From NCBI GenBank assembly GCA_036398175.1, contig DASWHL010000137.1, positions 8,295 to 72,294 on the forward strand: 64,000 bases of DNA. Reading direction: 5' to 3'. Positions within the stretch are counted from its first letter, which is position 1. Each line of letters opens with the position of its first letter. Source of the stretch: Gemmatimonadales bacterium. GTDB taxonomy: Bacteria > Gemmatimonadota > Gemmatimonadetes > Gemmatimonadales > GWC2-71-9. Positions 1-10,754 of this stretch are shown here, piece by piece. The translations under genes were made by a program, and so were the position numbers. The notes under the pieces are model-generated. The model had not been told where the DNA came from. It made no database searches and worked only from the letters and a program-made list of their open reading frames with translations.

Positions 1-936
1 CAGCTCGCGTCGCTTGCCCGCGGCCCGCCCCTCGGCCTCGAGCAGCGCCAGTTCCTCCCGGAGCGCCGGGACGTCCGCCATCCGGGGCTCCAGCTCGCGC
101 AGGGCCGTCTGCGCCGCCAGCGCCTCCGCCAGCGCGCGGTCAATGCGCTCGAACTCGCGCCGCGCTTCCTGGACGCGGCTCTCCGCCACCCGGCGGTCGC
201 CGTCCAGGGCCAGCATGGACTCGCGCAGCCGGGTCATGGCCGTCCAGGCGGGGCCCTCCGCTTCGCGCCGGCGCCGTGCCGCGTCCCGCGCCGCTTCGGC
301 CGCGCCCAGCGCGGCTTCCGCCTCGGTCACGCGCTCGGCGGCGTCCGCCCGCTCCCGCGCGAGCGCCGCGGGATCGCCCAGCCCCTGCTCGATGCCGGCC
401 AGTTCCCCCTTGAGACCGGTGCGGACCTCGCGAAGCCGGGCCTGTGCCACGCGCAGGCGGTCGTAGCCCAGCAGACGCGACAGGAACCGGCCGCGCTCCG
501 CCCCGCCCAGCGACGCCATCACCGCCAGCTCTTTCTGGCCGGTGAAGTACGTATTGAAGAACTCGTCGCGCTGCATCCCGAGCAGCCGCTCCAGCCGCGC
601 GGTCACTTCCTGCCCGCTGTTGGCGACGGGGTCCGCGGCGTGATCCACGAACAGCGTCGCGTCGTACAACGTGCGCGCCACCCGGTAGTCGTGCCCGCCG
701 AGCGCGAACTCCGCCTCCACCCGCACGGGCGACCGCGGGGTGGCGCGGTTGAACCGGATGGTGTCCCGGCTGCCGCGCACCGCCGGCGACCCGTAGAACG
801 CCCAGGCCAGCGCCTCGAGCAGGGTGGTCTTCCCCGCCCCGTTCGGGCCGATGATCCCGGTGATACCCTCGCCGAACGTGAGGTCAGTGGCGGCGTGCTG
901 CCGGAAGTTGACGAGCCGGAGCCGGTGGAGCCGCAT
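1..936 (-). CDS. sbcC: SbcC/Rad50-family DNA repair ATPase, N-terminal part (runs off window start)
   Basis: Minus-strand translation from ATG at 936 gives MRLHRLRLVNFRQHAATDLTFGEGITGIIGPNGAGKTTLLEALAWAFYG (Walker A GPNGAGKT), then a long Ala/Arg/Glu coiled coil. Open to the window edge, so absent from the ORF track. The ATG shares 1 nt with the sbcD stop (TGATG). Confidence 0.85.
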   Translation of the reverse strand, partial: MRLHRLRLVNFRQHAATDLTFGEGITGIIGPNGAGKTTLLEALAWAFYGSPAVRGSRDTIRFNRATPRSPVRVEAEFALGGHDYRVARTLYDATLFVDHAADPVANSGQEVTARLERLLGMQRDEFFNTYFTGQKELAVMASLGGAERGRFLSRLLGYDRLRVAQARLREVRTGLKGELAGIEQGLGDPAALARERADAAERVTEAEAALGAAEAARDAARRRREAEGPAWTAMTRLRESMLALDGDRRVAESRVQEARREFERIDRALAEALAAQTALRELEPRMADVPALREELALLEAEGRAAGKRREL

Positions 937-2117
937 CAGCCGTCGTCCCGCTCGGTGTGCGCCACGTACTCGTTGCCGAGCGTCACGAACCGCTCGCGCG
1001 GCACGCCGGGCGGCAGCGCGCGCTGGCGCAGGTATTCCTCGACCAGCACCGGCAGCGGCTGGCGCCGGCCCCGCTCGACCACCGTGGGGCGCGCCGCCTC
1101 GGGGCGCCGGAGATCGAGACGGAAGTGGAGCGCCCGGGCCTTGGCCTCGCGGATGGCCGAGTGATCGAGGTCGCGCGCGGTCACCCGGGCCACGTTGTAC
1201 GCCACCAGGCGCACCATCTGGCCGTCAATGCCGCCCTTCACGCCGGCGAGCCGCTTCGCGATGGCGGCGTCGAGGTCGGCCGCCTCCAGGCCCGTCCCCT
1301 CGAGCGACTCGAGATCGAGCACGCGCCGCTCGAGCGCGATCGGCCGGAACCGCACCGACGGCCCGGGCGCGAGGTCCACCAGCAGCCACCCCTTCTGGCC
1401 GTCGCGTTTGGCCGCGCCGCGCTCCCGCGATTCGCCCCACGGATTGGTGGTGACGTACTCGAGCGCGCCCGCGTACCAGGCGTTCGGCTCGACCCTGGTG
1501 ACCACGTGGTAGTGCCCCAGCGCCACGTAGTCGAACGCGTCCGCATGGAGGTCCGAGCGGCGGATGGGCGGTCCGCCATACCCGAGCGCGGCGGCGGCCG
1601 CGTACGGCAGCACGCCCTCGACCTCCCGATGCGTCACGAGCACGTTGTATTTCGCGGCGGGGTCGGGCTCGAGCGCCGGCTTCACCGCCTCACTCCAGGC
1701 GTTGTGCGGCACGCCGATCAGCGCGAGGTCCAGCTCGGGGAACGTGAGGCGCCGGGGCTCGAGGGCCACCACGTGCACGCCCGGGATGGCCTCGAACAGC
1801 TTCAGGATGGACCCGGTCTCGATCGAGCGCGGCGTATCGTGGTTCCCCGACACGAGCACGACGGGCGCCCGCGGGAGCCGTGACCGCAGGTCCTGGATCC
1901 GGCGGAACGTGTCGAGGATGGTGGTGTTGGTGGGACGGACCGTGTGAAAGACGTCCCCGGCAACGATGACCAGGTCGGGCTGCTGCGCCACCACGTCGTC
2001 GAGCGCGCGCCGGAACGCCAGGGCCACATCCGCTTCGCGCTGATTGATCCCCTGGGCGTTCTGCCGCGTGTACTGGCGGTAGCCGAGGTGCGGATCCGCG
2101 AGGTGCGCGAGCTTCAC
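936..2117 (-). CDS. sbcD: SbcD/Mre11-family nuclease
   Basis: 393-aa ORF with GTG start at 2117. Calcineurin-like phosphoesterase motifs occur in order: HLADPHLG, VIVAGDVFH, VSGNHD, ALGHYH. Directly followed by sbcC. Confidence 0.9.
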   Translation of the reverse strand: MKLAHLADPHLGYRQYTRQNAQGINQREADVALAFRRALDDVVAQQPDLVIVAGDVFHTVRPTNTTILDTFRRIQDLRSRLPRAPVVLVSGNHDTPRSIETGSILKLFEAIPGVHVVALEPRRLTFPELDLALIGVPHNAWSEAVKPALEPDPAAKYNVLVTHREVEGVLPYAAAAALGYGGPPIRRSDLHADAFDYVALGHYHVVTRVEPNAWYAGALEYVTTNPWGESRERGAAKRDGQKGWLLVDLAPGPSVRFRPIALERRVLDLESLEGTGLEAADLDAAIAKRLAGVKGGIDGQMVRLVAYNVARVTARDLDHSAIREAKARALHFRLDLRRPEAARPTVVERGRRQPLPVLVEEYLRQRALPPGVPRERFVTLGNEYVAHTERDDG

Positions 2118-2121
2118 ACGG

Positions 2122-2985
2122 TCAGGGGCGGACGCGATGGACCACGGTGCGGTCCCAGGTGGCCTCAGCCGTCTCCTCGCCGCGGGGCCGCTGCGCCCGG
2201 ATCCGGCCGGTGACGCGGATCCGGACCGCGCCCGAGACGAAGGCGCCCCACTCCTCCGACCACACGAGCCGGCCCGCGAAGCCGCCCGCGAGCGCGGTGA
2301 CGACGTCGCCGTCCTCGCCCGCGACGGCCGCCGTGCGCGGGGTGAGCGTTCCCTGGAAGTGCAGGTACGCGAGCCGGTCCGGGCCGGCCTGGGCCGCGCT
2401 GTCCAGCGTCAGGGCGAGGTCGCCGAACACCACCTCGTCAATGGCGAGACCCGTGGCCCTGTCTGTGCGGACCCGGGCGCGGAGCCGCCCACCCGTCGCG
2501 AACGTCTCGCCCGCGGTCACCGGGCCCTCCGGAAACGTGAAATCGAGCCCCGCCGCGAACGCGCCGAGCGCCTGGAGGATCTCGCCGTCCCGGGGACCCG
2601 TGCTCCGGATTCCGACCACCGCGAACCGCGGAGAGATGATGGCCTGCGCGGAGCCAAGGAGGGTGGAGTCCGCGTGATCCGTCCACGGCTCGCCACCCAG
2701 CCGCACGCGGCCCCGGATCGAGTCAATCGTCACCTCCACCACCGCGCCGTCCTCGGCCATCCGCGCGACCCGCTGGGTCACACCGATCCACGTCTCCTCC
2801 TCGAAGGCCGCGCGGTCCGGGACCGCGGGGAAGCCCACGAGCGTGGTCGTGGTCTTCACCTCGGTCAGCGTGCGGGTGAGCCGGCCCAGCTCAGGCACGA
2901 ACCGCAGGACCGCCTGCCCCCGCGCCGCAGCCGGGCTTCCTCCCAGGAGAAGCAGGCCTGCCACGATGACGTCACGCGGGTGCAT
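2122..2985 (-). CDS. hypothetical exported protein
   Basis: 287-aa ORF with ATG at 2985. Signal-peptide-like N-terminus MHPRDVIVAGLLLLGGSPAAARG. Balanced, protein-like composition with no motif recognised. Start overlaps the herA stop by 14 nt; its stop lies 4 nt upstream of the sbcD start. Confidence 0.6.
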   Translation of the reverse strand: MHPRDVIVAGLLLLGGSPAAARGQAVLRFVPELGRLTRTLTEVKTTTTLVGFPAVPDRAAFEEETWIGVTQRVARMAEDGAVVEVTIDSIRGRVRLGGEPWTDHADSTLLGSAQAIISPRFAVVGIRSTGPRDGEILQALGAFAAGLDFTFPEGPVTAGETFATGGRLRARVRTDRATGLAIDEVVFGDLALTLDSAAQAGPDRLAYLHFQGTLTPRTAAVAGEDGDVVTALAGGFAGRLVWSEEWGAFVSGAVRIRVTGRIRAQRPRGEETAEATWDRTVVHRVRP

Positions 2986-4912
2986 AGGGATCCTCCACGG
3001 TACGGAGCGGCGTCACGGCGGGCCCCGCGTCGGCGGGCGCGTCCCGGACAACCGCGCGGCCCAGGCGCGCCGTGAAAAAAGCCAGGACGTCGGCCGGGCG
3101 GGCGCGCCGCGTGGCCAGCAGGGCGCGCCGGACGTCGTCCTCGCGCCGTCCCACGATCAGGTCCTTCACCCGCTGCGGCGCCACGCGCCGGTCCAGGACC
3201 GAGAGCTGCCGCACGATCGCGTCGGCAAACGGCACGTCGGCGGCGGGCGGGTAGCGCTCGATCCCCTGCCGCCCCGCGAGCGCCGCGGGCCGCGGGAACC
3301 GCAGGAACACGGGCTGGGTGAAATGCGGGTGCCGGACCATCAACTCGCCCTTGGGAAGCGTCGCGAGCTTGCTCTTGGTGGCGGGGGAGAGCGTCTGATA
3401 GCCCGGGGTCGCCAGCTCGTCACCGTCCATCCGGCCGTACACGGTGGTCCCCGCGTTGCCCACCACCCGCCGGTGCACCTGCGAGCGGAACTGCTGCGCC
3501 CCGAACAGCACGAGACCGAGATAGCGTCCCCGCTCGGAGATGTCGAGCAGCATCTTCCGCACGTAGGTCTCGGGCCCGTCGGCCGGCGCGTACTTGTTCA
3601 GCTCGTCCACGAACACGACCACGTTGTCCACGCCCAGGTCCCGCCGCTCGAGGTGCTCGCGCAGCTTGGAGACCACGCGCGTGAACACCAGGTCCTGCCC
3701 GAGCTGGTCGAGGCCCGCCACGTCCACCACGTATACCGTGCGGTCGGCAAAGGCGCCGAAGGGCAGGTCGTTGCCCGACGCCTCGTCCGTCACGAGCCCC
3801 TTGCACCGCGTGGACACGTTCATCAGGCGGTTCCGCACCTTGCGGATCGTGGCGACGTGATGCGTCCGCCACATCTCGCGGCCGCCGGCCTGCTCGAGCC
3901 CGTCGAAGATGGCGCGGAACAGGCCTTCGAGTCCGGCGAAGCTCTCGACGAGATGGTGGTTGCCCCACTCGTCCTGGAACGGCCGGCCCACCACGCGGTC
4001 GGCAAGAAAATCGAGGAACGCGTCGGCCTTGGCGTCTATGTCGTCCCGGTTGAGCAGGACCTCCGCGTAGTCGAGCACCTCGCGCAGGCCCCAGACGAGC
4101 GGCTCCACGGCATGCACCAGGTCGGGATGGGTGCGCAGGGTGTTCAGGTTCACGCCGTCCGGCTTGAACGGCGCGAAGTAGCGCACCTGGGAAAACGGCT
4201 CGGGGCGGATATCCAGCTCCGCGTACATGGCCGCGTCCTCAGGCGGCAGGTCGCTCGGCAGGTCGAGGAAGGCCAGGTCCGGCCCCTTCACGTTGAGGCA
4301 GACCGCGGCGACACTGCCCTTCCGCTTCGGGAAATGCTGGAAGATGGCGCTGAGAAAGAACAGCACCGCGCTGGTCTTGGTGGCGAGCCCGGACACGCCG
4401 GAGATGCCGAGGTGCGCCGACTCGGGCCCGAGGAGAAAATCGGCGTCCACGAACACCGGCGCGCGCGTCCCACCCGCGGCGTAGAGGCCGATGGGTATGG
4501 CGGTGCGCTCGTCGCCGCGGGCGAACGCGTCCATCCGGAGGGCGACCTCGACGTCCGCCGCGTCGGCCAGGTGGACGGCGGCGAGCGGCACGGGCTGCAT
4601 GGGCTCCGGCGGATCCTGGCGCAGCACAGCGGCCGTCCACAGCCGGATCTCGGCGCGGCGCGACGGCGGGAGCGGGGCGGCGGGATTGCCCTCGCTCGCC
4701 ACCACCTCGTGCAGCGGGGTGAGCAGGTCCGAATACGCCCGCCCGTCGGTGACCACCGCATACACCGTGCGCGTGGCCCCGTCCACCCGCACGATGGCCC
4801 CGATCCCCACCGGCGCTTCCACCGCCGTCCAGAAGTGGAACTGGTGGGGACTCGCCGGGAGGGCCTCCGTCGCGACGACGCGTCCGATGGGGTCCTGGGG
4901 CGCTGCGGTCAC
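2972..4912 (-). CDS. herA: HerA-like HAS-barrel / FtsK-type ATPase
   Basis: Track ORF 2972..5122 trimmed to the GTG at 4912, which overlaps the nurA stop (GTGA); the discarded extension is Arg/Gly-rich. HAS-barrel-like N-terminus (IGRVVATEA..FHFWTAVEAPVGIGAIVRVDG). P-loop-like GISGVSGLATKTS and Walker B VVVFVDELNKYAP. C-terminal half GRYLGLVLFGAQQFRSQV..GNAGTTVYGRM. Confidence 0.7.
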   Translation of the reverse strand: MTAAPQDPIGRVVATEALPASPHQFHFWTAVEAPVGIGAIVRVDGATRTVYAVVTDGRAYSDLLTPLHEVVASEGNPAAPLPPSRRAEIRLWTAAVLRQDPPEPMQPVPLAAVHLADAADVEVALRMDAFARGDERTAIPIGLYAAGGTRAPVFVDADFLLGPESAHLGISGVSGLATKTSAVLFFLSAIFQHFPKRKGSVAAVCLNVKGPDLAFLDLPSDLPPEDAAMYAELDIRPEPFSQVRYFAPFKPDGVNLNTLRTHPDLVHAVEPLVWGLREVLDYAEVLLNRDDIDAKADAFLDFLADRVVGRPFQDEWGNHHLVESFAGLEGLFRAIFDGLEQAGGREMWRTHHVATIRKVRNRLMNVSTRCKGLVTDEASGNDLPFGAFADRTVYVVDVAGLDQLGQDLVFTRVVSKLREHLERRDLGVDNVVVFVDELNKYAPADGPETYVRKMLLDISERGRYLGLVLFGAQQFRSQVHRRVVGNAGTTVYGRMDGDELATPGYQTLSPATKSKLATLPKGELMVRHPHFTQPVFLRFPRPAALAGRQGIERYPPAADVPFADAIVRQLSVLDRRVAPQRVKDLIVGRREDDVRRALLATRRARPADVLAFFTARLGRAVVRDAPADAGPAVTPLRTVEDPYAPA

Positions 4913-5802
4913 AGCCAACCTCCCGCCTGGGCGCGGAGCGCGGTTTCCACCTCGTGCAGGGGATAGAGCAGGCGGTCCCAGCGGGAGTCCCGTCCCGCGA
5001 TCGGGGCCCGCTCCGCCAGCAACCACCGACTCACCCGATCCGCGTCCTCCACGACCCCGTCGCCGGCGATCCGCTCCACCCGGGTCAGGCCGTGCAGGAG
5101 GTCCTCGTCCGTCCACGGCCACAGTCTAAGGTACCACGAGAGCAGGACCGTGCCGTCATCCAACTCTCGGGCGAAGACGCTCGATCGGCTCCCTGCCGGC
5201 GCCGTGAGGGCCACCTCGAGGTCCGGGCCGTCCAGGAACTGGGTCTCGTGCCGCTTGGCGATGCCGATGGCCCGCGCGGCCCCGGGCACGTCCCGCAACC
5301 CGGCAAGGCCGCCGTCCACGACCAGCATGACCTCGGGTCGGGCGTCCAGGAAGGCGCGGCATGCCTCCCGCTCGAGCGCCTCGCGACGGCGCTCCACCAC
5401 CTGGGCCACGGCCCAGCGGTCGAGATAGGGGTGCGGTCGGGACTCGCCGACGGCATCGTACACCGGGAGTCCCACACCCGAAATCGCCGCCCGTTCCCGC
5501 ACGCCCAGCCGGTCCGCCGGCACGACGAGGAACTCCTCGTCCAGCCGGATCGCGGCCCGCAGGGCGCCGCCGGCCCGCACGAGCACGCCCGCCGCGATCT
5601 GGCCCCGCGCCACGGGCACGAGCCCGAAGTGCCCTTCGATCCCCCAGCGCTGGATGCCGTCGGCGAACCCGATGCCGTCCGGCGCGGCTTCGGCCGGCCC
5701 CACGGGCACGGCCCGCACCCGGGCGCCCTCCACTACGCGGGCCGTGGCGAATGGCCGCTGCACGGGCTGGGGCGCTCCCTGGAAGGCGGTGCCGCGGGCC
5801 AC
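4909..5802 (-). CDS. nurA: NurA-like nuclease
   Basis: 297-aa ORF with GTG at 5802. Motif order as I recall for NurA: MLVVDGGLAG (acidic DG motif), IGIAKRHETQF, SWYLRLWP, LTRVERIAG, LLYPLHEVETALR. Stop overlaps the herA start. Family call is by eye only. Confidence 0.55.
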   Translation of the reverse strand: MARGTAFQGAPQPVQRPFATARVVEGARVRAVPVGPAEAAPDGIGFADGIQRWGIEGHFGLVPVARGQIAAGVLVRAGGALRAAIRLDEEFLVVPADRLGVRERAAISGVGLPVYDAVGESRPHPYLDRWAVAQVVERRREALEREACRAFLDARPEVMLVVDGGLAGLRDVPGAARAIGIAKRHETQFLDGPDLEVALTAPAGSRSSVFARELDDGTVLLSWYLRLWPWTDEDLLHGLTRVERIAGDGVVEDADRVSRWLLAERAPIAGRDSRWDRLLYPLHEVETALRAQAGGWL

Positions 5803-5849
5803 CGTCCCGCCCGCGGCGGCCAGCGCCGCGCGCAGCCGGGCGCGGACTG

Positions 5850-6491
5850 TCAGGCGCCCACCCGCACGGCCGCCAGCAGTCCGTCCCGGACCGGGATCAC
5901 GGCGGTCACGAACCGCGGGTCCTCCGCCACCAGGCGATTGAACTCGCGCATCCCGCGGAGGTCCGAGCCCTCGGCCTCCGGATCCGCGATCCGTCCGTCC
6001 ATGAACGTGTTGTCGCAGAGGAGCAGACCGCCCACCCGGAGCAGGCGCAGCGAGGCTTCGAGGTAGTCGGGGAGCGGCGCCTTGTCCGCGTCCAGGAAGA
6101 TCGCGTCGAACGGGCCCTCGAGCGTCGCCATGGTATCGAGGGCGGCGCCGCAGATCAGCTCCACGCGGTCGGCCACCCCGGCGCGGTCGAACGCCTCCCG
6201 CGCGTGGGCGGCGTGCCGCTCGTCGCCCTCGATCGTCACGAGGCGCCCGCCGGGCGGCAGCGCGCGCGCCATCCAGATCCCGCTGTAGCCGCTCAGCGTC
6301 CCGACCTCGAGCACCCGCCGCGCGCCCACCAGCCGGATCAGCATCCGGAGGATGGCACCCTCTTCCGGCGACACGTGGATCGTAGGCAGGGCCGCCTGCG
6401 TGTGACCCGCTCGGACGGCCGCAAGCGCGGGGTCCTCGCGCGCGAACAGCCCGGCAAGGTACGCGGCGAGGCGGTCGGCGTCGGCGGTCAT
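5850..6491 (-). CDS. SAM-dependent O-methyltransferase, family 3 (caffeoyl-CoA OMT-like)
   Basis: Track ORF 5850..6779 trimmed to ATG 6491 (ATGA overlap with the upstream gene). Contains VLEVGTLSGYSGIWMA, FDAIFLDADK and LLRVGGLLLCDN. Confidence 0.8.
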   Translation of the reverse strand: MTADADRLAAYLAGLFAREDPALAAVRAGHTQAALPTIHVSPEEGAILRMLIRLVGARRVLEVGTLSGYSGIWMARALPPGGRLVTIEGDERHAAHAREAFDRAGVADRVELICGAALDTMATLEGPFDAIFLDADKAPLPDYLEASLRLLRVGGLLLCDNTFMDGRIADPEAEGSDLRGMREFNRLVAEDPRFVTAVIPVRDGLLAAVRVGA

Positions 6492-6907
6492 TCCCCCTGC
6501 TCGAAGGGAGGGAGCGCGTCGAGCCAGAGCCCCCCCAGGCATCCGGCCGCGTCGAGGTCCACGATCACGTTCTCGGCGATGCGGACCGAGCGGGCGGGCG
6601 GGGTGCCGAACTTGAGCCGGATCAGCGCCTCGAGGATCACCCGTCCGGGCGCCGCCGCGTGCGGCACGGTCAGCGCGGCGCGCTCCACGTCCGGCCAGGC
6701 GACCACCTCGATACCGCCGGGCACGCCGCCTGTCGTCTCGAGGACGACTACGGCACCGGTGGGACTTTCGATCTCCCACGAGCCGGTGAAGCCGGCCGGC
6801 GCGTCAGACAGGTCCTGGCGCCCGGACAGGATCTCCGTCTCGGCGTCCCAGCGGAACGGGAACGCCGGAAGCGGCGCCGGCGCGGCGGCGGTGGTGGCCC
6901 GGATCAT
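6488..6907 (-). CDS. hypothetical protein
   Basis: 139-aa ORF with ATG at 6907. Lies 1 nt after the aminotransferase stop, and its own stop overlaps the methyltransferase start. No motif recognised. Confidence 0.5.
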   Translation of the reverse strand: MIRATTAAAPAPLPAFPFRWDAETEILSGRQDLSDAPAGFTGSWEIESPTGAVVVLETTGGVPGGIEVVAWPDVERAALTVPHAAAPGRVILEALIRLKFGTPPARSVRIAENVIVDLDAAGCLGGLWLDALPPFEQGE

Positions 6908-6908
6908 G

Positions 6909-8096
6909 TCAGCACACCCGCATGAACCGCGCGAGCCGCTCGAGCGCCCGGACGAGGTCCTCCTCCGACGCCGCGTAGCTCAGTCGCACCCACCGTGGGT
7001 CGCCGAACGCGTCGCCGGGGACGAGGGCCACGCCCTCCTTGTTCATCAGCCGCTCGCAGAAGTCCGCCGCGGAGCCGAGCCCCGCGCCGAACAGATGATC
7101 CACCCGGAAGAAGAAGTAGAAGGCGCCCACCGGATCCACGAACTCGACGCCCGGCATCTCCCGCCGGAAGTACGCCTCCACGAGATCGCGCCGCGCGCGG
7201 AACGCCTCGACCATCCGGTCCACGTCCTGCTCGATGCGGTCGTCGCCAAAGGCGGCCACGGCCGCCCACTGCGACGGCTGCGAGGCCCCGCTGGTCATGT
7301 GCCCCTGCACGCCCGCCATGGCCTTGGCCACCGGGCCGGGCGCCAGGGCCAGGCCGATCCGCCAGCCCGTCATCGCGTACGTCTTGCTGACCCCGGACAC
7401 CATCACCACGCGCTCCAGCAGCTCGTCCGGCAGGTCCAGCACGGAGGGCGCCGGGCCCGGCCCGTAGTGGATGCGACGGTAGATCTCGTCCGCGATGACC
7501 CACACCTCGTGCTTGTGCGCCCACTCGACGATGGCCTTGAGCTCGGCCCGTGTGTACACGGCCCCGGTGGGGTTGCAGGGCGACGAGAACAGGAGGCCGC
7601 GCGTGAGCGTGTCCCGCTCCCGCTCCAGGTCCTCCACGCTCACCTTCATGCTCCACTCGGGCGCGCCCGCCACGATCACCGGCTCGGCGCGCGCGAACCG
7701 GATCATCTGTGGGTAGGAGACCCAATAGGGCGCGGGGACGAGGACCTTGTCTCCGGCGCCGAACAGCACGAAGCACGCGTTGAAGAGCGACTGCTTGGCG
7801 CCGGTCGAGATCACCAGATGATCCGCGTTCACGGGCCGGCCGCCCGACAGGAGCGAGAAGTGCCGCGCGATGGCGGCGCGCAGGTCCAGCAACCCCTGAT
7901 TGGGCGGGTAGTGCGTCTTGCCCTGCTGGATGGCGCGGATGCCGGCCTCGGCCGCGATGCGCGGCGTGTCGAAATCCGGCTCGCCGGCTGAGAGGTCCAC
8001 GACGTCCTCGCCCGCCGCCCGCCGGTGCTGCGCCATCTGGTTGATGGTCAGCGTCTCGGACGGTCTGAGGTGCTCGATGTTCTTCGACAGTCTCAT
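6909..8096 (-). CDS. PLP-dependent class I aminotransferase (aspartate aminotransferase-like)
   Basis: 395 aa. Contains SSPCNPTGAVY and the PLP-lysine motif SGVSKTYAMTGWRIG, with a typical AspC-like overall layout. Confidence 0.9.
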   Translation of the reverse strand: MRLSKNIEHLRPSETLTINQMAQHRRAAGEDVVDLSAGEPDFDTPRIAAEAGIRAIQQGKTHYPPNQGLLDLRAAIARHFSLLSGGRPVNADHLVISTGAKQSLFNACFVLFGAGDKVLVPAPYWVSYPQMIRFARAEPVIVAGAPEWSMKVSVEDLERERDTLTRGLLFSSPCNPTGAVYTRAELKAIVEWAHKHEVWVIADEIYRRIHYGPGPAPSVLDLPDELLERVVMVSGVSKTYAMTGWRIGLALAPGPVAKAMAGVQGHMTSGASQPSQWAAVAAFGDDRIEQDVDRMVEAFRARRDLVEAYFRREMPGVEFVDPVGAFYFFFRVDHLFGAGLGSAADFCERLMNKEGVALVPGDAFGDPRWVRLSYAASEEDLVRALERLARFMRVC

Positions 8097-9244
8097 GGGC
8101 GGACGGCTCCGTAACGGCGCAGCACGGCGAGGGTCTCGTCGAGCGGCAGCGCCTCCACCGTACCGGCGGCGCCCCGCACCGAAGTCGCGAGCAACAGCGA
8201 ATTATATATCGCCTCCTCGGTGGCCTCGATTGTGGCCAGGAACAGCGGACTCATCGCGTCGTTCCCGAGCGGCCCCCGCCGGCCCAGCTCGGCCACCGGC
8301 ACCGTGGAGAAGGCAATCACGTAGTCGCCCGATCCGTTGGTCATGGCCGACCCGGTGCGCGCGAGCCCCGCCAGCGCCCGCCGCCCCAGCCGTTCGAGGT
8401 TTCGCGCGTCCAGCGGCGCATCCGTGGCCACGACGATCATGATGGAGCCGTCCGCCTCGTTCCCCCCGTCGCTCCCGTCGCTCCCGTCGCGCCCGTCAAT
8501 CTGTTCCCGCAGATAGTACCGCCCCAGCTCCCGCCCCACCGGCGCGCCGTTGATCGTGAGCACGCCACCGAAGTTGGTCTGGACCAGCACGCCCACCGTC
8601 CAGCCGCCCAGCGCGGGCGGCAGGCGCCGGCTGGCGCTCCCGATGCCGCCTTTCCAGCCGAACGCCACGGTGCCGCGGCCCGCGCCCACGCTCCCCTGCG
8701 CCACCGGCCCGGTGTCCGCGCGCGTGATGGCGTCGAGCACGTCGCGCTCGGTCACCGCGCGGCGCCGGATGTCGTTGAGCGAGCCGTCGTTGGTCTCGCC
8801 CACCACCACGTTCACCGACCGCACGGTCTCGTTGCCGGGGAGGCCGAGCACGTACGTGAGGGCCGCGTCGGCGACCCGCGGGACGCACAGCGTGCACGTC
8901 AGCAGAATTGGCGACTCGATTTCGCCCAGTTCCCGCACCTGGGTGCTGCCCATGAGCTTGCCGAACGCGTTCCCGAGCACCACGGCGCCGGGCACCTTCT
9001 CGCGGAACACGTTGCCGCCGTGCGGCAGGATGGCCGTGACGCCCGTATTGAGGGAGGCCCCATCCGCGATGGTCGTGTGACCCACCCGCACCCCCGCGAC
9101 ATCCGTGATGGCATTGCGCGGCCCCGGCGGCAGGATCCCCACCACCACCCCCAGCTCCCGCGCGCTGCGCCGCGCCGTCTCCTGCGCCTCCACCCCGTCG
9201 CCCACCGCCAGTACCGCCAGCACCACCATCCACCCATCTCGCAT
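8093..9244 (-). CDS. P1/S58 family peptidase (DmpA/BapA-like aminopeptidase)
   Basis: Track ORF trimmed to ATG 9244 (MRDGWMVVLAVLAVG, signal-like). Contains GPRNAITDVAGVRVGHTT, NTGVTAILP, VVGETNDGSLND and GSVGAGRGTVAFGWKGGIGSAS. Stop overlaps the aminotransferase start (ATGA). Confidence 0.8.
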   Translation of the reverse strand: MRDGWMVVLAVLAVGDGVEAQETARRSARELGVVVGILPPGPRNAITDVAGVRVGHTTIADGASLNTGVTAILPHGGNVFREKVPGAVVLGNAFGKLMGSTQVRELGEIESPILLTCTLCVPRVADAALTYVLGLPGNETVRSVNVVVGETNDGSLNDIRRRAVTERDVLDAITRADTGPVAQGSVGAGRGTVAFGWKGGIGSASRRLPPALGGWTVGVLVQTNFGGVLTINGAPVGRELGRYYLREQIDGRDGSDGSDGGNEADGSIMIVVATDAPLDARNLERLGRRALAGLARTGSAMTNGSGDYVIAFSTVPVAELGRRGPLGNDAMSPLFLATIEATEEAIYNSLLLATSVRGAAGTVEALPLDETLAVLRRYGAVRP

Positions 9245-9316
9245 GACACCACTCCTGTCGCCCGTCCACGACCGCTGGTTGACCCTGCCTCCCCACCCCA
9301 CCCCCGCAACCACCCC

Positions 9317-9351
9317 ACGCTACACGCTACACGCTACCCGCTGCACCCTGC
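9317..9351. repeat. heptanucleotide tandem repeat, 3 perfect ACGCTAC units plus 2 degenerate units
   Basis: Read directly: ACGCTAC ACGCTAC ACGCTAC CCGCTGC ACCCTGC. Located in the divergent intergenic region between the S58 peptidase and the DbpA-like gene. Confidence 0.85.
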
Positions 9352-9422
9352 ACCACCGGTTGCGCCCCGTCCCTCCCGGCGGTACGATCCGCAGCACTGT
9401 TTCTTTGACAACCGAGGCTGTC

Positions 9423-10754
9423 GTGTCCTGGGAATTCGCGCCGACCTTCGACGCCGCGCATCGCGCCGCGCTCGACGCCGGCAAACCGCTGATCTACGTG
9501 TGCCCGCCCGCCGGATGGGCGCTGGTCCCGCTGGGCGAGCGCGTGGCGCCCGCCGCGGAGGCGGGCCTGGGCACGGTGGTGCTGGTCCCCGAGCCGGCGG
9601 ACGTCGGCGACGTGGCCGGCGCGCTCGACAGCCTCGACGCCCTCCGTCCGGTGCACGGCCTCACGGGCCTGGCCCGGACCGCCCGCTTCCTCGCGGCGGG
9701 CAGCATTCGCACCCTCGTCCTCACGCCCCCGGACGCCCTGGCGCTTGCCCGGCAGTCCGTGCTGCGGCTCTCCCAGGTGCGCACGCTGGTGATCGCCTGG
9801 CCGGAGGGCATGCACGCACTCGGCCAGGGCGAGGCCCTCGACGCCATCCTGGCGGAGACGCCGGACGCGCAGCGCCTGATCGCGACCGCCGACGAGCGGC
9901 CGCCCGACATGGCCGATCTGCTGGCGCGGATCGCGCATCGCGCGCCCGTGGTGGCCGCGGCGCGGCTTCCCGAGGGGGCACCGGCCGTGCCGCTGCGCTG
10001 GATCGGAACGGACGGCGACCGGCGGGCCCAGGTGACGCGCGCCGCGCTGGACGTCCTCAACCCCGCCACCGCGGTCGTGTGGGAGCCCCTGGCCGCGCGT
10101 GGTTCCCGCTGGACGGCCGTGGCGCGCGATCCCGCCGTTCGGGTGGTGCACGTCATCCCCGACGAAGCCGTGCCGCTGATCGTGGCCGGCGACCTGCCGT
10201 CCGCCGACGCGCTCGCGGCGCTGAGCGCGGCCGCGCGGGACGTCGTGGTCCTGGTGCGCGCGTCACAGGTGGGCTACCTGGAGCGGCTGTCGGCGACGGC
10301 GCGGACGCTGCGGGTGGTGGCGGCGGCGGACGTGGCGCTGGACCGCGCGGCGGGCGTACGGCGGCGTCTGCGCGAGCGATTGGCCGAAGGGCGCCTCGAC
10401 GGGGAGCTGCACACGCTCGGGGCCCTGTTCGACGAGTACGACCCCACGCTCGTCGCCGCGGCCGCGCTGGCCCTGATCGCGACGCCGGCCGCGCCCGCGC
10501 CCGCGCCCGAGACGGCCGGATGGGCCCGCCTCGTCGTCACGGCCGGCCGGCGCGACGGCGTGCGCGCCGGCGATCTCGTCGGCGCGCTGGTGAACGAAGC
10601 CGGCCTGCCCCGCAACGCGATCGGGAAGATCGACCTGCGGGACGGCTTCACCCTCATCGAGATCCGCGCCGACGAAGCCGAGCGGGCCCAGCGCGGACTC
10701 ACCGGCGTCAGCCTCAGGGGCAAGCGCGTCAGCGCGCGGCCGGAGCGCCGCTGA
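9423..10754 (+). CDS. DbpA-like DEAD-box helicase homologue with degenerate ATPase motifs and an intact DbpA-type C-terminal RNA-binding domain
   Basis: Track ORF 9105..10754; start placed at GTG 9423 (TTG 9405 also possible). Collinear with the E. coli DbpA layout but with substituted motifs: CPPAGWAL for AKTGSGKT, PEPADV for PTRELA, LTPPD for TPGR, AWPE for DEAD, ATA for SAT. The C-terminus WARLVVTAGRRDGVRAGDLVGALVNEAGLPRNAIGKIDLRDGFTLIEI matches the DbpA domain pattern. Confidence 0.75.
   Translation: MSWEFAPTFDAAHRAALDAGKPLIYVCPPAGWALVPLGERVAPAAEAGLGTVVLVPEPADVGDVAGALDSLDALRPVHGLTGLARTARFLAAGSIRTLVLTPPDALALARQSVLRLSQVRTLVIAWPEGMHALGQGEALDAILAETPDAQRLIATADERPPDMADLLARIAHRAPVVAAARLPEGAPAVPLRWIGTDGDRRAQVTRAALDVLNPATAVVWEPLAARGSRWTAVARDPAVRVVHVIPDEAVPLIVAGDLPSADALAALSAAARDVVVLVRASQVGYLERLSATARTLRVVAAADVALDRAAGVRRRLRERLAEGRLDGELHTLGALFDEYDPTLVAAAALALIATPAAPAPAPETAGWARLVVTAGRRDGVRAGDLVGALVNEAGLPRNAIGKIDLRDGFTLIEIRADEAERAQRGLTGVSLRGKRVSARPERR

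Follow-up and report, generated by a model that had tools for sequence, protein, structure and literature searches.

A conserved nurA-herA-mre11-rad50 operon of Gemmatimonadota as a probable bacterial system for DNA end resection

Constantinesco in 2004 and Hopkins & Paull in 2008 are said to have described, for archaea such as Sulfolobus and Pyrococcus, an operon of the order herA-mre11-rad50-nurA. The archaeal four-gene operon and the cooperative resection of DNA ends by its products are by now established (Blackwood 2012, PMC3326311), and archaeal Mre11 is reported to bind HerA and the four proteins to cooperate biochemically (PMC3326311, PMC2288612). As to Bacteria, the structure of the NurA-HerA pair of Deinococcus radiodurans has been solved, revealing a bacterial-specific pin motif and an ionic interface, and the pair resects DNA ends in vitro (PMC9960219), its link to SbcCD having been left open (PMC4663267). 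In Oceanithermus profundus, sbcD-sbcC are located downstream of nurA-hepA, an arrangement that has been read as an archaeal-like architecture for double-strand-break repair (Blesa et al., 2017, PMC5448004). A literature search revealed no paper on the HerA of Gemmatimonadota. Here we describe a block of five genes, nurA, herA, a gene that we call X, mre11 (sbcD) and rad50 (sbcC), located at the start of a stretch of 64,000 nucleotides (the window) from the genome of a soil bacterium of the Gemmatimonadales (GenBank assembly GCA_036398175.1, contig DASWHL010000137.1, positions 8,295 to 72,294). By analogy with the systems above, we consider it probable (about 0.75) that the block represents a chromosomal, vertically inherited, four-component operon for the resection of double-strand-break ends.

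The genes of the block, with protein lengths in amino acids (aa), are as follows:

4909..5802, minus strand: nurA, from GTG 5802 to TGA 4909, 297 aa
2972..4912, minus strand: herA, from GTG 4912 to TGA 2972, 646 aa
2122..2985, minus strand: X, from ATG 2985 to TGA 2122, 287 aa
936..2117, minus strand: mre11/sbcD, from GTG 2117 to TGA 936, 393 aa
1..936, minus strand: rad50/sbcC, from the ATG at 936-934 and leaving the window at its start, with the N-terminal 312 codons inside

An earlier reading of this DNA, made from the letters alone (the sequence-only reading), had proposed that these genes are translationally coupled, and all four of its junctions, when the minus strand is read directly, are exact in every overlap and gap: nurA and herA have GTGA in common, herA and X overlap by 14 nucleotides (nt; 2972-2985), X and mre11 are 4 nt apart (2118-2121), and mre11 and rad50 have TGATG in common, with an overlap of 1 nt. 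Equally tight junctions, with genes that overlap or lie no more than 4 nt apart, are seen among the genes called in relatives whose NurA is 47-85% identical, and these, along with a gene order that is kept in approximately 95% of the 80 species genomes, argue that the tight coupling in the window is not due to chance. The guanine plus cytosine (GC) content is about 72-76% over the first 12 kilobases (kb), the block showing no compositional break relative to its flanks.

As to the identity of HerA, a phmmer search with the 646-aa protein had a sole match in the PDB, the HerA of D. radiodurans (DrHerA; 7f6d_B, 6e-42), covering residues 5-551 (5-300 and 358-551). With a profile made from 28 diverse relatives (alignment A3, average column identity of 29%), DrHerA is matched at 1.4e-107 over positions 4-542, versus 1.1e-3 for the HerA of Sulfolobus solfataricus (4d2i), 1.8e-7 to 0.28 for the HerA structures from defence systems (8xau, 9c1m, 8ziq, 8wiv, 8j4u), and nothing better than 1.8e-10 for any other FtsK-like ATPase. 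The protein thus sides with the NurA-partnered DrHerA, and not with the defence proteins or with other FtsK-like ATPases, as the earlier assignment implied. In its N-terminal part it can be aligned to the HAS-barrel region of DrHerA, and the Walker A (GVSGLATKTS, with K179) and Walker B (VDELNKYAP, with D436 and E437) motifs are invariant in the 28-sequence alignment, K179 and D436/E437 aligning with K175 and D487/E488 of DrHerA, the residues required for activity in the latter (PMC9960219). Identity to DrHerA is roughly 30-35%, a value read off the alignment and not computed. By homology, the 646-aa protein is a bacterial-type HerA, a predicted hexameric translocase/ATPase. No match for it was found in Pfam, even at E<=10, or in NCBIfam, and PADLOC produced only a weak match to mad8 (2e-5); the failure of Pfam and NCBIfam represents an annotation gap for the bacterial clade and not evidence against homology. 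The longest open reading frame (ORF) for herA would encode 716 aa, starting from 5122. The GTG start at 4912 is preferred, as the resulting 646-aa protein is matched end to end (100% identity, 100% coverage) by the protein P0155 of a Gemmatimonadales metagenome-assembled genome (MAG), and as the alignment with DrHerA begins from residue 5.

The case of NurA relies on profiles and on structure prediction. Searches of Pfam (even at E<=10), NCBIfam and PADLOC with the 297-aa protein produced no match, nor did a single-sequence search of the PDB, and the precomputed Pfam field is blank in 120 of 120 NurA homologues. The Pfam profile check that had been suggested for NurA and HerA thus failed for both proteins, and their identities come from the PDB search, from family profiles and from structure prediction. 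A profile based on 34 family members (alignment A1) matches the NurA of D. radiodurans (DrNurA, 7f6d_H) at E=1e-3 and TM1739 (1zup) at 0.044, and, as this profile does reach DrNurA, the Pfam miss is a matter of how the model covers a divergent bacterial clade. The AlphaFold2 (AF2) model built from the same alignment has a predicted local distance difference test score (pLDDT) of 86.9 and a predicted template modelling score (pTM) of 0.86, and its top three Foldseek matches in the PDB are all NurA proteins, DrNurA (7f6d_G, 5e-12), Thermotoga maritima TM1739 (1zup, 9e-10) and S. solfataricus NurA (2ygk, 4e-7), followed by Argonaute PIWI domains, of RNase H-like fold, at 4e-3 or weaker. Identity to DrNurA is only 18% in the structural alignment. 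D48-G49 (FxDGIQR), E144, D163-G164 (VVDG), K183 and H185 are invariant in the 34 family members, and the VVDG and GxVKxHxT segments align with both DrNurA and TM1739 in the family profile alignments. The 297-aa protein is, as modelled, a bacterial-type NurA nuclease with an RNase H-like fold, and the NurA-like fold claimed for it in the sequence-only reading is borne out.

The start of nurA is uncertain by 17 codons, since the frame is open upstream of GTG 5802, where a further 17 codons (LTVRARLRAALAAAGGT) show homology to N-terminal sequences of relatives (alignment A1), with no ATG, GTG or TTG present in this extension (5803-5853, minus strand). The extension includes a CTG (5853-5851), which overlaps with the stop codon (TGA, 5852-5850) of the O-methyltransferase gene located upstream, and some relatives possess a GTG start at the equivalent position. 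The sequence suggests that the true start of nurA may be further upstream, for example at CTG 5853; either the gene would employ a non-canonical start, or the NurA encoded here would be devoid of the conserved N-terminal segment. In the NurA of D. radiodurans, the N-terminus comprises the pin motif and a dimerisation strand.

Mre11 and Rad50 are recognized by the standard models. Mre11 matches Pfam Metallophos (PF00149) at 3.4e-12, above the cut-off, and all five nuclease motifs, as read from the translation, are intact (D8-x-H10, G54-D55-xx-H58, G91-N92-H93-D94, H163, and G201-H202-x-H204). Its best NCBIfam model is Mre11_Sulfo (1.8e-22; 80 bits versus a cut-off of 500), ahead of the sbcd models, with TIGR00619 sbcd at 64.8 versus a cut-off of 77.65; it fits neither of the curated lineage-specific equivalogs, the archaeal Mre11 or the bacterial SbcD. 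Its matches in the PDB are to Mre11 and SbcD only, the best being those of Pyrococcus furiosus and Methanocaldococcus jannaschii Mre11, and no chain in this match list carries an E. coli entry code. The Rad50 fragment in the window matches Pfam AAA_23 (5e-19) and contains the Walker A motif (GPNGAGKTT) and the beginning of the coiled coil, and its best NCBIfam models are those of archaeal Rad50, which are 872-895 positions long. The remaining motifs were read from the full-length orthologue of a close relative (L001:13991-16417, a lineage at 85% identity), the window gene representing the N-terminal part only. This orthologue, of 808 aa, possesses a CPTC zinc hook (413-416), the SGGE signature and a Walker B motif (LLVLDE), and its PDB matches are to the Rad50 proteins of P. 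furiosus, M. jannaschii and T. maritima. Overall, Mre11 and Rad50 score closer to archaeal models and structures than to the bacterial SbcCD, yet below every curated equivalog cut-off. In one complete-chromosome MAG (CP070792.1, L004:15778-16731), the gene following mre11 is called at only 318 aa, the N-terminal head of Rad50, with a gene for a peptidase directly behind it; either rad50 is apparently truncated in this MAG, or the assembly is faulty in the region.

We now have multiple examples of this gene arrangement in the phylum. One genome per species was scanned with a diverse HerA alignment, and the best 80 matches, all of them from Gemmatimonadota, were followed up by ORF calling and by searches with the window proteins and the family profiles. 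Of 74 assessable loci, 70 have nurA upstream of herA and in the same orientation (directly adjacent in 61), and mre11 followed by rad50 is found downstream of herA in 69 of 72. In seven species nurA and herA are separated by inserts, of approximately 1.7 kb in L026, L029, L041, L042, L066 and L072 and of approximately 1 kb in L063. The L026 insert (8296-9969) encodes, on the same strand, a glpD-like protein (a glycerol-3-phosphate-dehydrogenase-like oxidoreductase of the flavin adenine dinucleotide type, with DAO and DAO_C domains), and candidate insert ORFs of L042, L063 and L072 have no Pfam match. At the other end of the cluster, beyond the start of the window, 50 of 55 assessable loci possess a gene for a GNAT acetyltransferase that overlaps with the 3' end of rad50, in most species by about 13-20 nt at the rad50 stop. 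Its product (325 aa in L001:16398-17375) has PF00583 at residues 73-144 and a C-terminal half with no assignment. The GNAT gene is a conserved sixth gene of the cluster, and the protein may be an accessory or regulatory partner. Upstream of nurA, the aminotransferase gene is found in 44 of 52 loci and the gene for a 139-aa protein in 41 of 52, with S58 peptidase and O-methyltransferase genes as less constant neighbours. This is a fixed housekeeping locus and not a variable island.

Beyond the phylum, a metagenome scan, anchored on a linked distant HerA homologue, revealed the order nurA-herA-(gap)-mre11-rad50 in three divergent HerA clades besides the Gemmatimonadota-like one. The mre11 gene is found downstream of herA in 11 of 12 assessable loci (clade A), 9 of 12, truncated contigs counted (clade B), 6 of 10 (clade C), and 12 of 16 (clade D, the Gemmatimonadota-like one). 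Relatives do keep the genes together, as the synteny survey proposed for this locus was meant to establish, in the Gemmatimonadota and in these three further clades. The sequence-only reading had taken the bacterial NurA-HerA, where studied, to be outside any operon with SbcCD. This is correct for D. radiodurans and Thermus, and does not apply to O. profundus (PMC5448004) or to several uncultured bacterial lineages. Among HerA representatives at 35-46% identity, three loci encode the nurA-herA pair alone, one encodes herA along with ssb, and in one the nurA-herA pair precedes a Metallophos gene, behind which comes a gene cut by the contig end. All 19 of the viral or proviral contigs from IMG/VR (L092-L110) carry nurA-herA. 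A further distant nurA-herA pair (L089, P0322), likewise one of the HerA representatives above, is found in a mobile-element-like region encoding IstB, HTH_17, PRiA4_ORF3 and an N6/N4 methylase. HerA identity for these pairs, that of L089 included, is 27-43%, and mre11-rad50 are present on none of the 19 contigs, nor with the L089 pair. One more of these representatives (P0316, L087:8001-11111; 35% identity) is a HerA of 1036 aa that carries a fused FHA phosphopeptide-binding domain. It stands alone, and neither nurA nor mre11 or rad50 is found near it. Thus the nurA-herA pair is the universal core, its linkage to mre11-rad50 being common, not universal, among bacterial lineages, and in other lineages the pair is a mobile module as well.

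Like the archaeal operon, the cluster in question unites the same four protein families in one operon, its Mre11 and Rad50 scoring best against archaeal models and structures, and the Rad50 orthologue in L001 being short (808 aa, near the length of the archaeal models) and possessing a CxxC hook. Unlike the archaeal operon, it has the order nurA-herA-(X)-mre11-rad50 instead of herA-mre11-rad50-nurA, its host is a mesophilic-type, high-GC bacterium, its HerA and NurA belong to a bacterial (Deinococcus/Thermotoga-like) clade, and it includes an extra gene for an exported protein and a downstream GNAT gene. The idea of a recently transferred archaeal operon was rejected in view of the bacterial-type HerA and NurA and of a GC content uniform with the flanks. 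The closest solved homologues of both HerA and NurA are those of D. radiodurans (DR0836/DR0837; PDB 7F6D), which also form an operon in which nurA precedes herA, and the resection mechanism of a HerA6-NurA2 assembly would presumably be the same as in that species; the D. radiodurans pair, however, is not linked to sbcCD. The O. profundus cluster, compared here by its description, has the same order of nurA-herA-sbcD-sbcC, in a different phylum (Deinococcota, Thermales) and in a thermophile. That arrangement was reported from one genus and regarded as a secondary recruitment, whereas the present one is kept across the 80 species genomes of Gemmatimonadota and occurs in other, uncultured lineages as well. 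The SIR2-HerA (Nezha) and DUF4297-HerA systems are alike in that a gene for a hexameric ATPase of the HerA family is found next to a gene for a nuclease or toxic effector. They differ from the present cluster, in which the effector has a NurA fold, HerA is distant from theirs, PADLOC has no match, and the locus is a fixed housekeeping one.

Gene X requires a separate consideration. Its product has no match in Pfam (E<=10), NCBIfam or PADLOC, and only 34 homologues were found. Its start, MHPRD-VIVAGLLLLGG-SPAAA|RGQ, has the pattern of a Sec signal peptide, and in each of the 31 homologues that were aligned the N-terminus is basic and is followed by a hydrophobic stretch, which varies, and by AAA|Q, which is conserved (the AxA|Q cleavage pattern). 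The AF2 model is all-beta (pLDDT 88.9), with no match in the PDB above a template modelling (TM) score of 0.47, the best being the beta-sheet shells of lipovitellin, ApoB and MTP. The slot between herA and mre11 is variable: the two genes abut directly, without X, in 33 of 69 species, an insert of approximately 0.87 kb is found in 16 species, of approximately 1.7 kb in 10, and a larger one in 3, with an intermediate gap of 150-700 nt in 7. In iterated searches, 15 of the 16 shorter inserts had a gene of the X family (none detected in L080), and 9 of the 10 inserts of approximately 1.7 kb had two X paralogues in tandem (none in L065). Over the 80 species loci the family occurs only between herA and mre11, in 0, 1 or 2 tandem copies (slots of L004-L020 and L025-L081), and in other clades the slot is occupied by unrelated small genes, for example ASCH or BTAD. 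From these sequences, X is predicted to represent a fast-evolving, lineage-specific family of exported proteins. Since occupancy of the slot is variable, X is not a core component but, most likely, a passenger in an insertion-tolerant slot. Thus, of the five-gene block proposed originally, the coupling of all five genes stands, and X as a fifth component does not.

A mechanism may be outlined by extension from the systems of archaea and D. radiodurans. Mre11-Rad50 would recognize, tether and trim a broken end. A HerA hexamer would be loaded on the duplex and, driven by ATP, would push it through the central channel and on into a dimer of NurA bound to the HAS-barrel face, where the strands would be parted and the 5' strand preferentially degraded, leaving a 3' tail for RecA in homologous recombination. 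Translational coupling would keep the subunits co-expressed. By analogy, we infer that a physical complex is formed, that Mre11-Rad50 passes the DNA end on to HerA-NurA, and that the cluster serves in recombinational repair.

In the window, the block is preceded by the following genes:

8093-9313, minus strand: S58 peptidase, upstream of the aminotransferase
6909-8096, minus strand: class I/II aminotransferase, overlapping the S58 peptidase gene by 4 nt
6488-6907, minus strand: unknown protein of 139 aa, with a gap of 1 nt to the aminotransferase gene
ending at 5850 (TGA 5852-5850), minus strand: O-methyltransferase, directly upstream of nurA

These genes (5850-9313) form a tight co-directional array that leads into nurA, and the transcription unit may thus be longer than five genes, extending upstream of nurA. 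A promoter/terminator scan, uninformative for this phylum, found no promoter-like site and found terminator-like matches only inside coding sequence. No tRNA genes, and no Rfam families at the gathering threshold, were found in the whole 64-kb window.

The reading of the cluster as a bacterial four-component end-resection system, one of the two that had been offered from the sequence, builds on direct observations, namely the identities of the genes, the preserved ATPase motifs, the preserved nuclease motifs of Mre11 and candidate catalytic residues of NurA, the tight coupling and the conserved gene order, and is supported by the affinity of HerA. Several points weigh against it. The window proteins are missed by the NurA and HerA models of both Pfam and NCBIfam. 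In D. radiodurans, NurA-HerA adds little to radiation resistance, and other or regulatory roles are apparent (PMC4663267), a mild phenotype from which it follows that homology alone is no guarantee of a primary role in resection. The operon tolerates unrelated insertions (X, and the glpD-like gene between nurA and herA); co-transcription is no proof of functional partnership, and the co-directional methyltransferase gene is only about 47 nt away from GTG 5802 of nurA, possibly overlapping nurA. One alternative is a module for anti-phage or anti-plasmid defence, in which HerA would drive NurA against foreign linear DNA with the assistance of SbcCD, comparable to SIR2-HerA, DUF4297-HerA, or the dual role of RecBCD. 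ATPases of the HerA family do pair with effectors in defence systems, and these are detectable here as distant relatives (the five structures listed above); distant NurA-HerA pairs are found on the 19 IMG/VR contigs and in the mobile-element-like L089, and degradation of foreign DNA by HerA-NurA has been speculated upon for archaea (PMC3326311). We nevertheless consider this alternative very unlikely, as PADLOC has no system-level match, with nothing for NurA and X and only the weak mad8 match for HerA, as the match of HerA to DrHerA, a repair-associated protein, is better by approximately 100 orders of magnitude than that to any HerA from a defence system, and as the effector has the NurA fold and not that of SIR2 or DUF4297. 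Moreover, the same housekeeping neighbourhood is found in dozens of species, with no variable defence island, the cluster is near-universal in the lineage, versus the patchy distribution typical of defence genes, and 0 of the 19 viral-contig pairs are accompanied by mre11-rad50. The preference for repair over defence that the sequence-only reading drew from the flanking genes is upheld, with the housekeeping neighbours constant across the phylum and nothing meaningful from PADLOC.

Another alternative is that NurA-HerA serves some other DNA transaction, such as replication-fork processing, regulation of growth through RecJ of the kind proposed for D. radiodurans, or DNA transfer or segregation of the kind discussed for the Thermus HepA, the linkage with mre11-rad50 reflecting shared regulation only. 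The low radiation sensitivity of the D. radiodurans nurA and herA mutants and the modulation of RecJ by HerA (PMC4663267) are in agreement with such a role, as are the pleiotropic roles of the Thermus HepA (PMC5448004), the many relatives that possess nurA-herA without mre11-rad50, and the tolerance of unrelated genes inside the operon. That nurA-herA are specifically and repeatedly found next to mre11-rad50, in four divergent HerA clades and with stop and start codons that overlap, is nevertheless hard to explain without functional coupling, and the four archaeal proteins are reported to cooperate biochemically, with Mre11 binding HerA (PMC3326311, PMC2288612); a different transaction thus appears unlikely. 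That X would be a functional fifth subunit or accessory factor is very improbable in our judgment. It is true that X is translationally coupled on both sides, that the family was found in the herA-mre11 slot in every case examined, and that one or two copies are present in about 38% of Gemmatimonadota species, but the Sec signal peptide in 31 of 31 homologues implies action outside of the cytoplasm, away from DNA, 33 of 69 species do without X, with herA abutting mre11, other clades have unrelated small genes in the slot, and the fold has no DNA-related match. As a DNA-binding subunit specifically, X was rejected in view of the conserved signal peptide and of its absence from about half of the species. 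We thus prefer the reading of the cluster as an end-resection operon with four components.

With archaeal operons and one bacterial precedent, that of O. profundus, known already, the present cluster extends a known system. What is new is modest: conservation over 80 Gemmatimonadota species genomes and occurrence in several uncultured lineages; the pairing of archaeal-like Mre11 and Rad50 with bacterial-type HerA and NurA; and a coupled GNAT gene, an insertion slot for exported proteins, and a blind spot of annotation. As to the latter, the source records name some of the NurA homologues (P0001, P0005) 'PAS domain-containing protein', and, with such mislabels and with the NurA and HerA clade missed by Pfam and NCBIfam, the system is invisible to standard annotation. 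The stable, coupled nurA-herA-mre11-rad50 operons provide comparative-genomic support for a functional link between SbcCD and NurA-HerA in Bacteria, and they offer mesophilic, potentially tractable systems, for example in cultured Gemmatimonas. A bolder and rather doubtful proposition is that, in Gemmatimonadota and several uncultured soil lineages, Mre11-Rad50/HerA-NurA would serve as the main resection pathway, replacing RecBCD, AddAB or AdnAB, and would have been elaborated with lineage-specific partners. The GNAT protein might then regulate the complex by acetylation, and the exported X-family protein may, with a lesser likelihood than GNAT, also take part in the machine. If this proposition is true, these organisms would provide a bacterial model for the hand-off of DNA ends from Mre11-Rad50 to HerA-NurA, a step that is still unclear in archaea.

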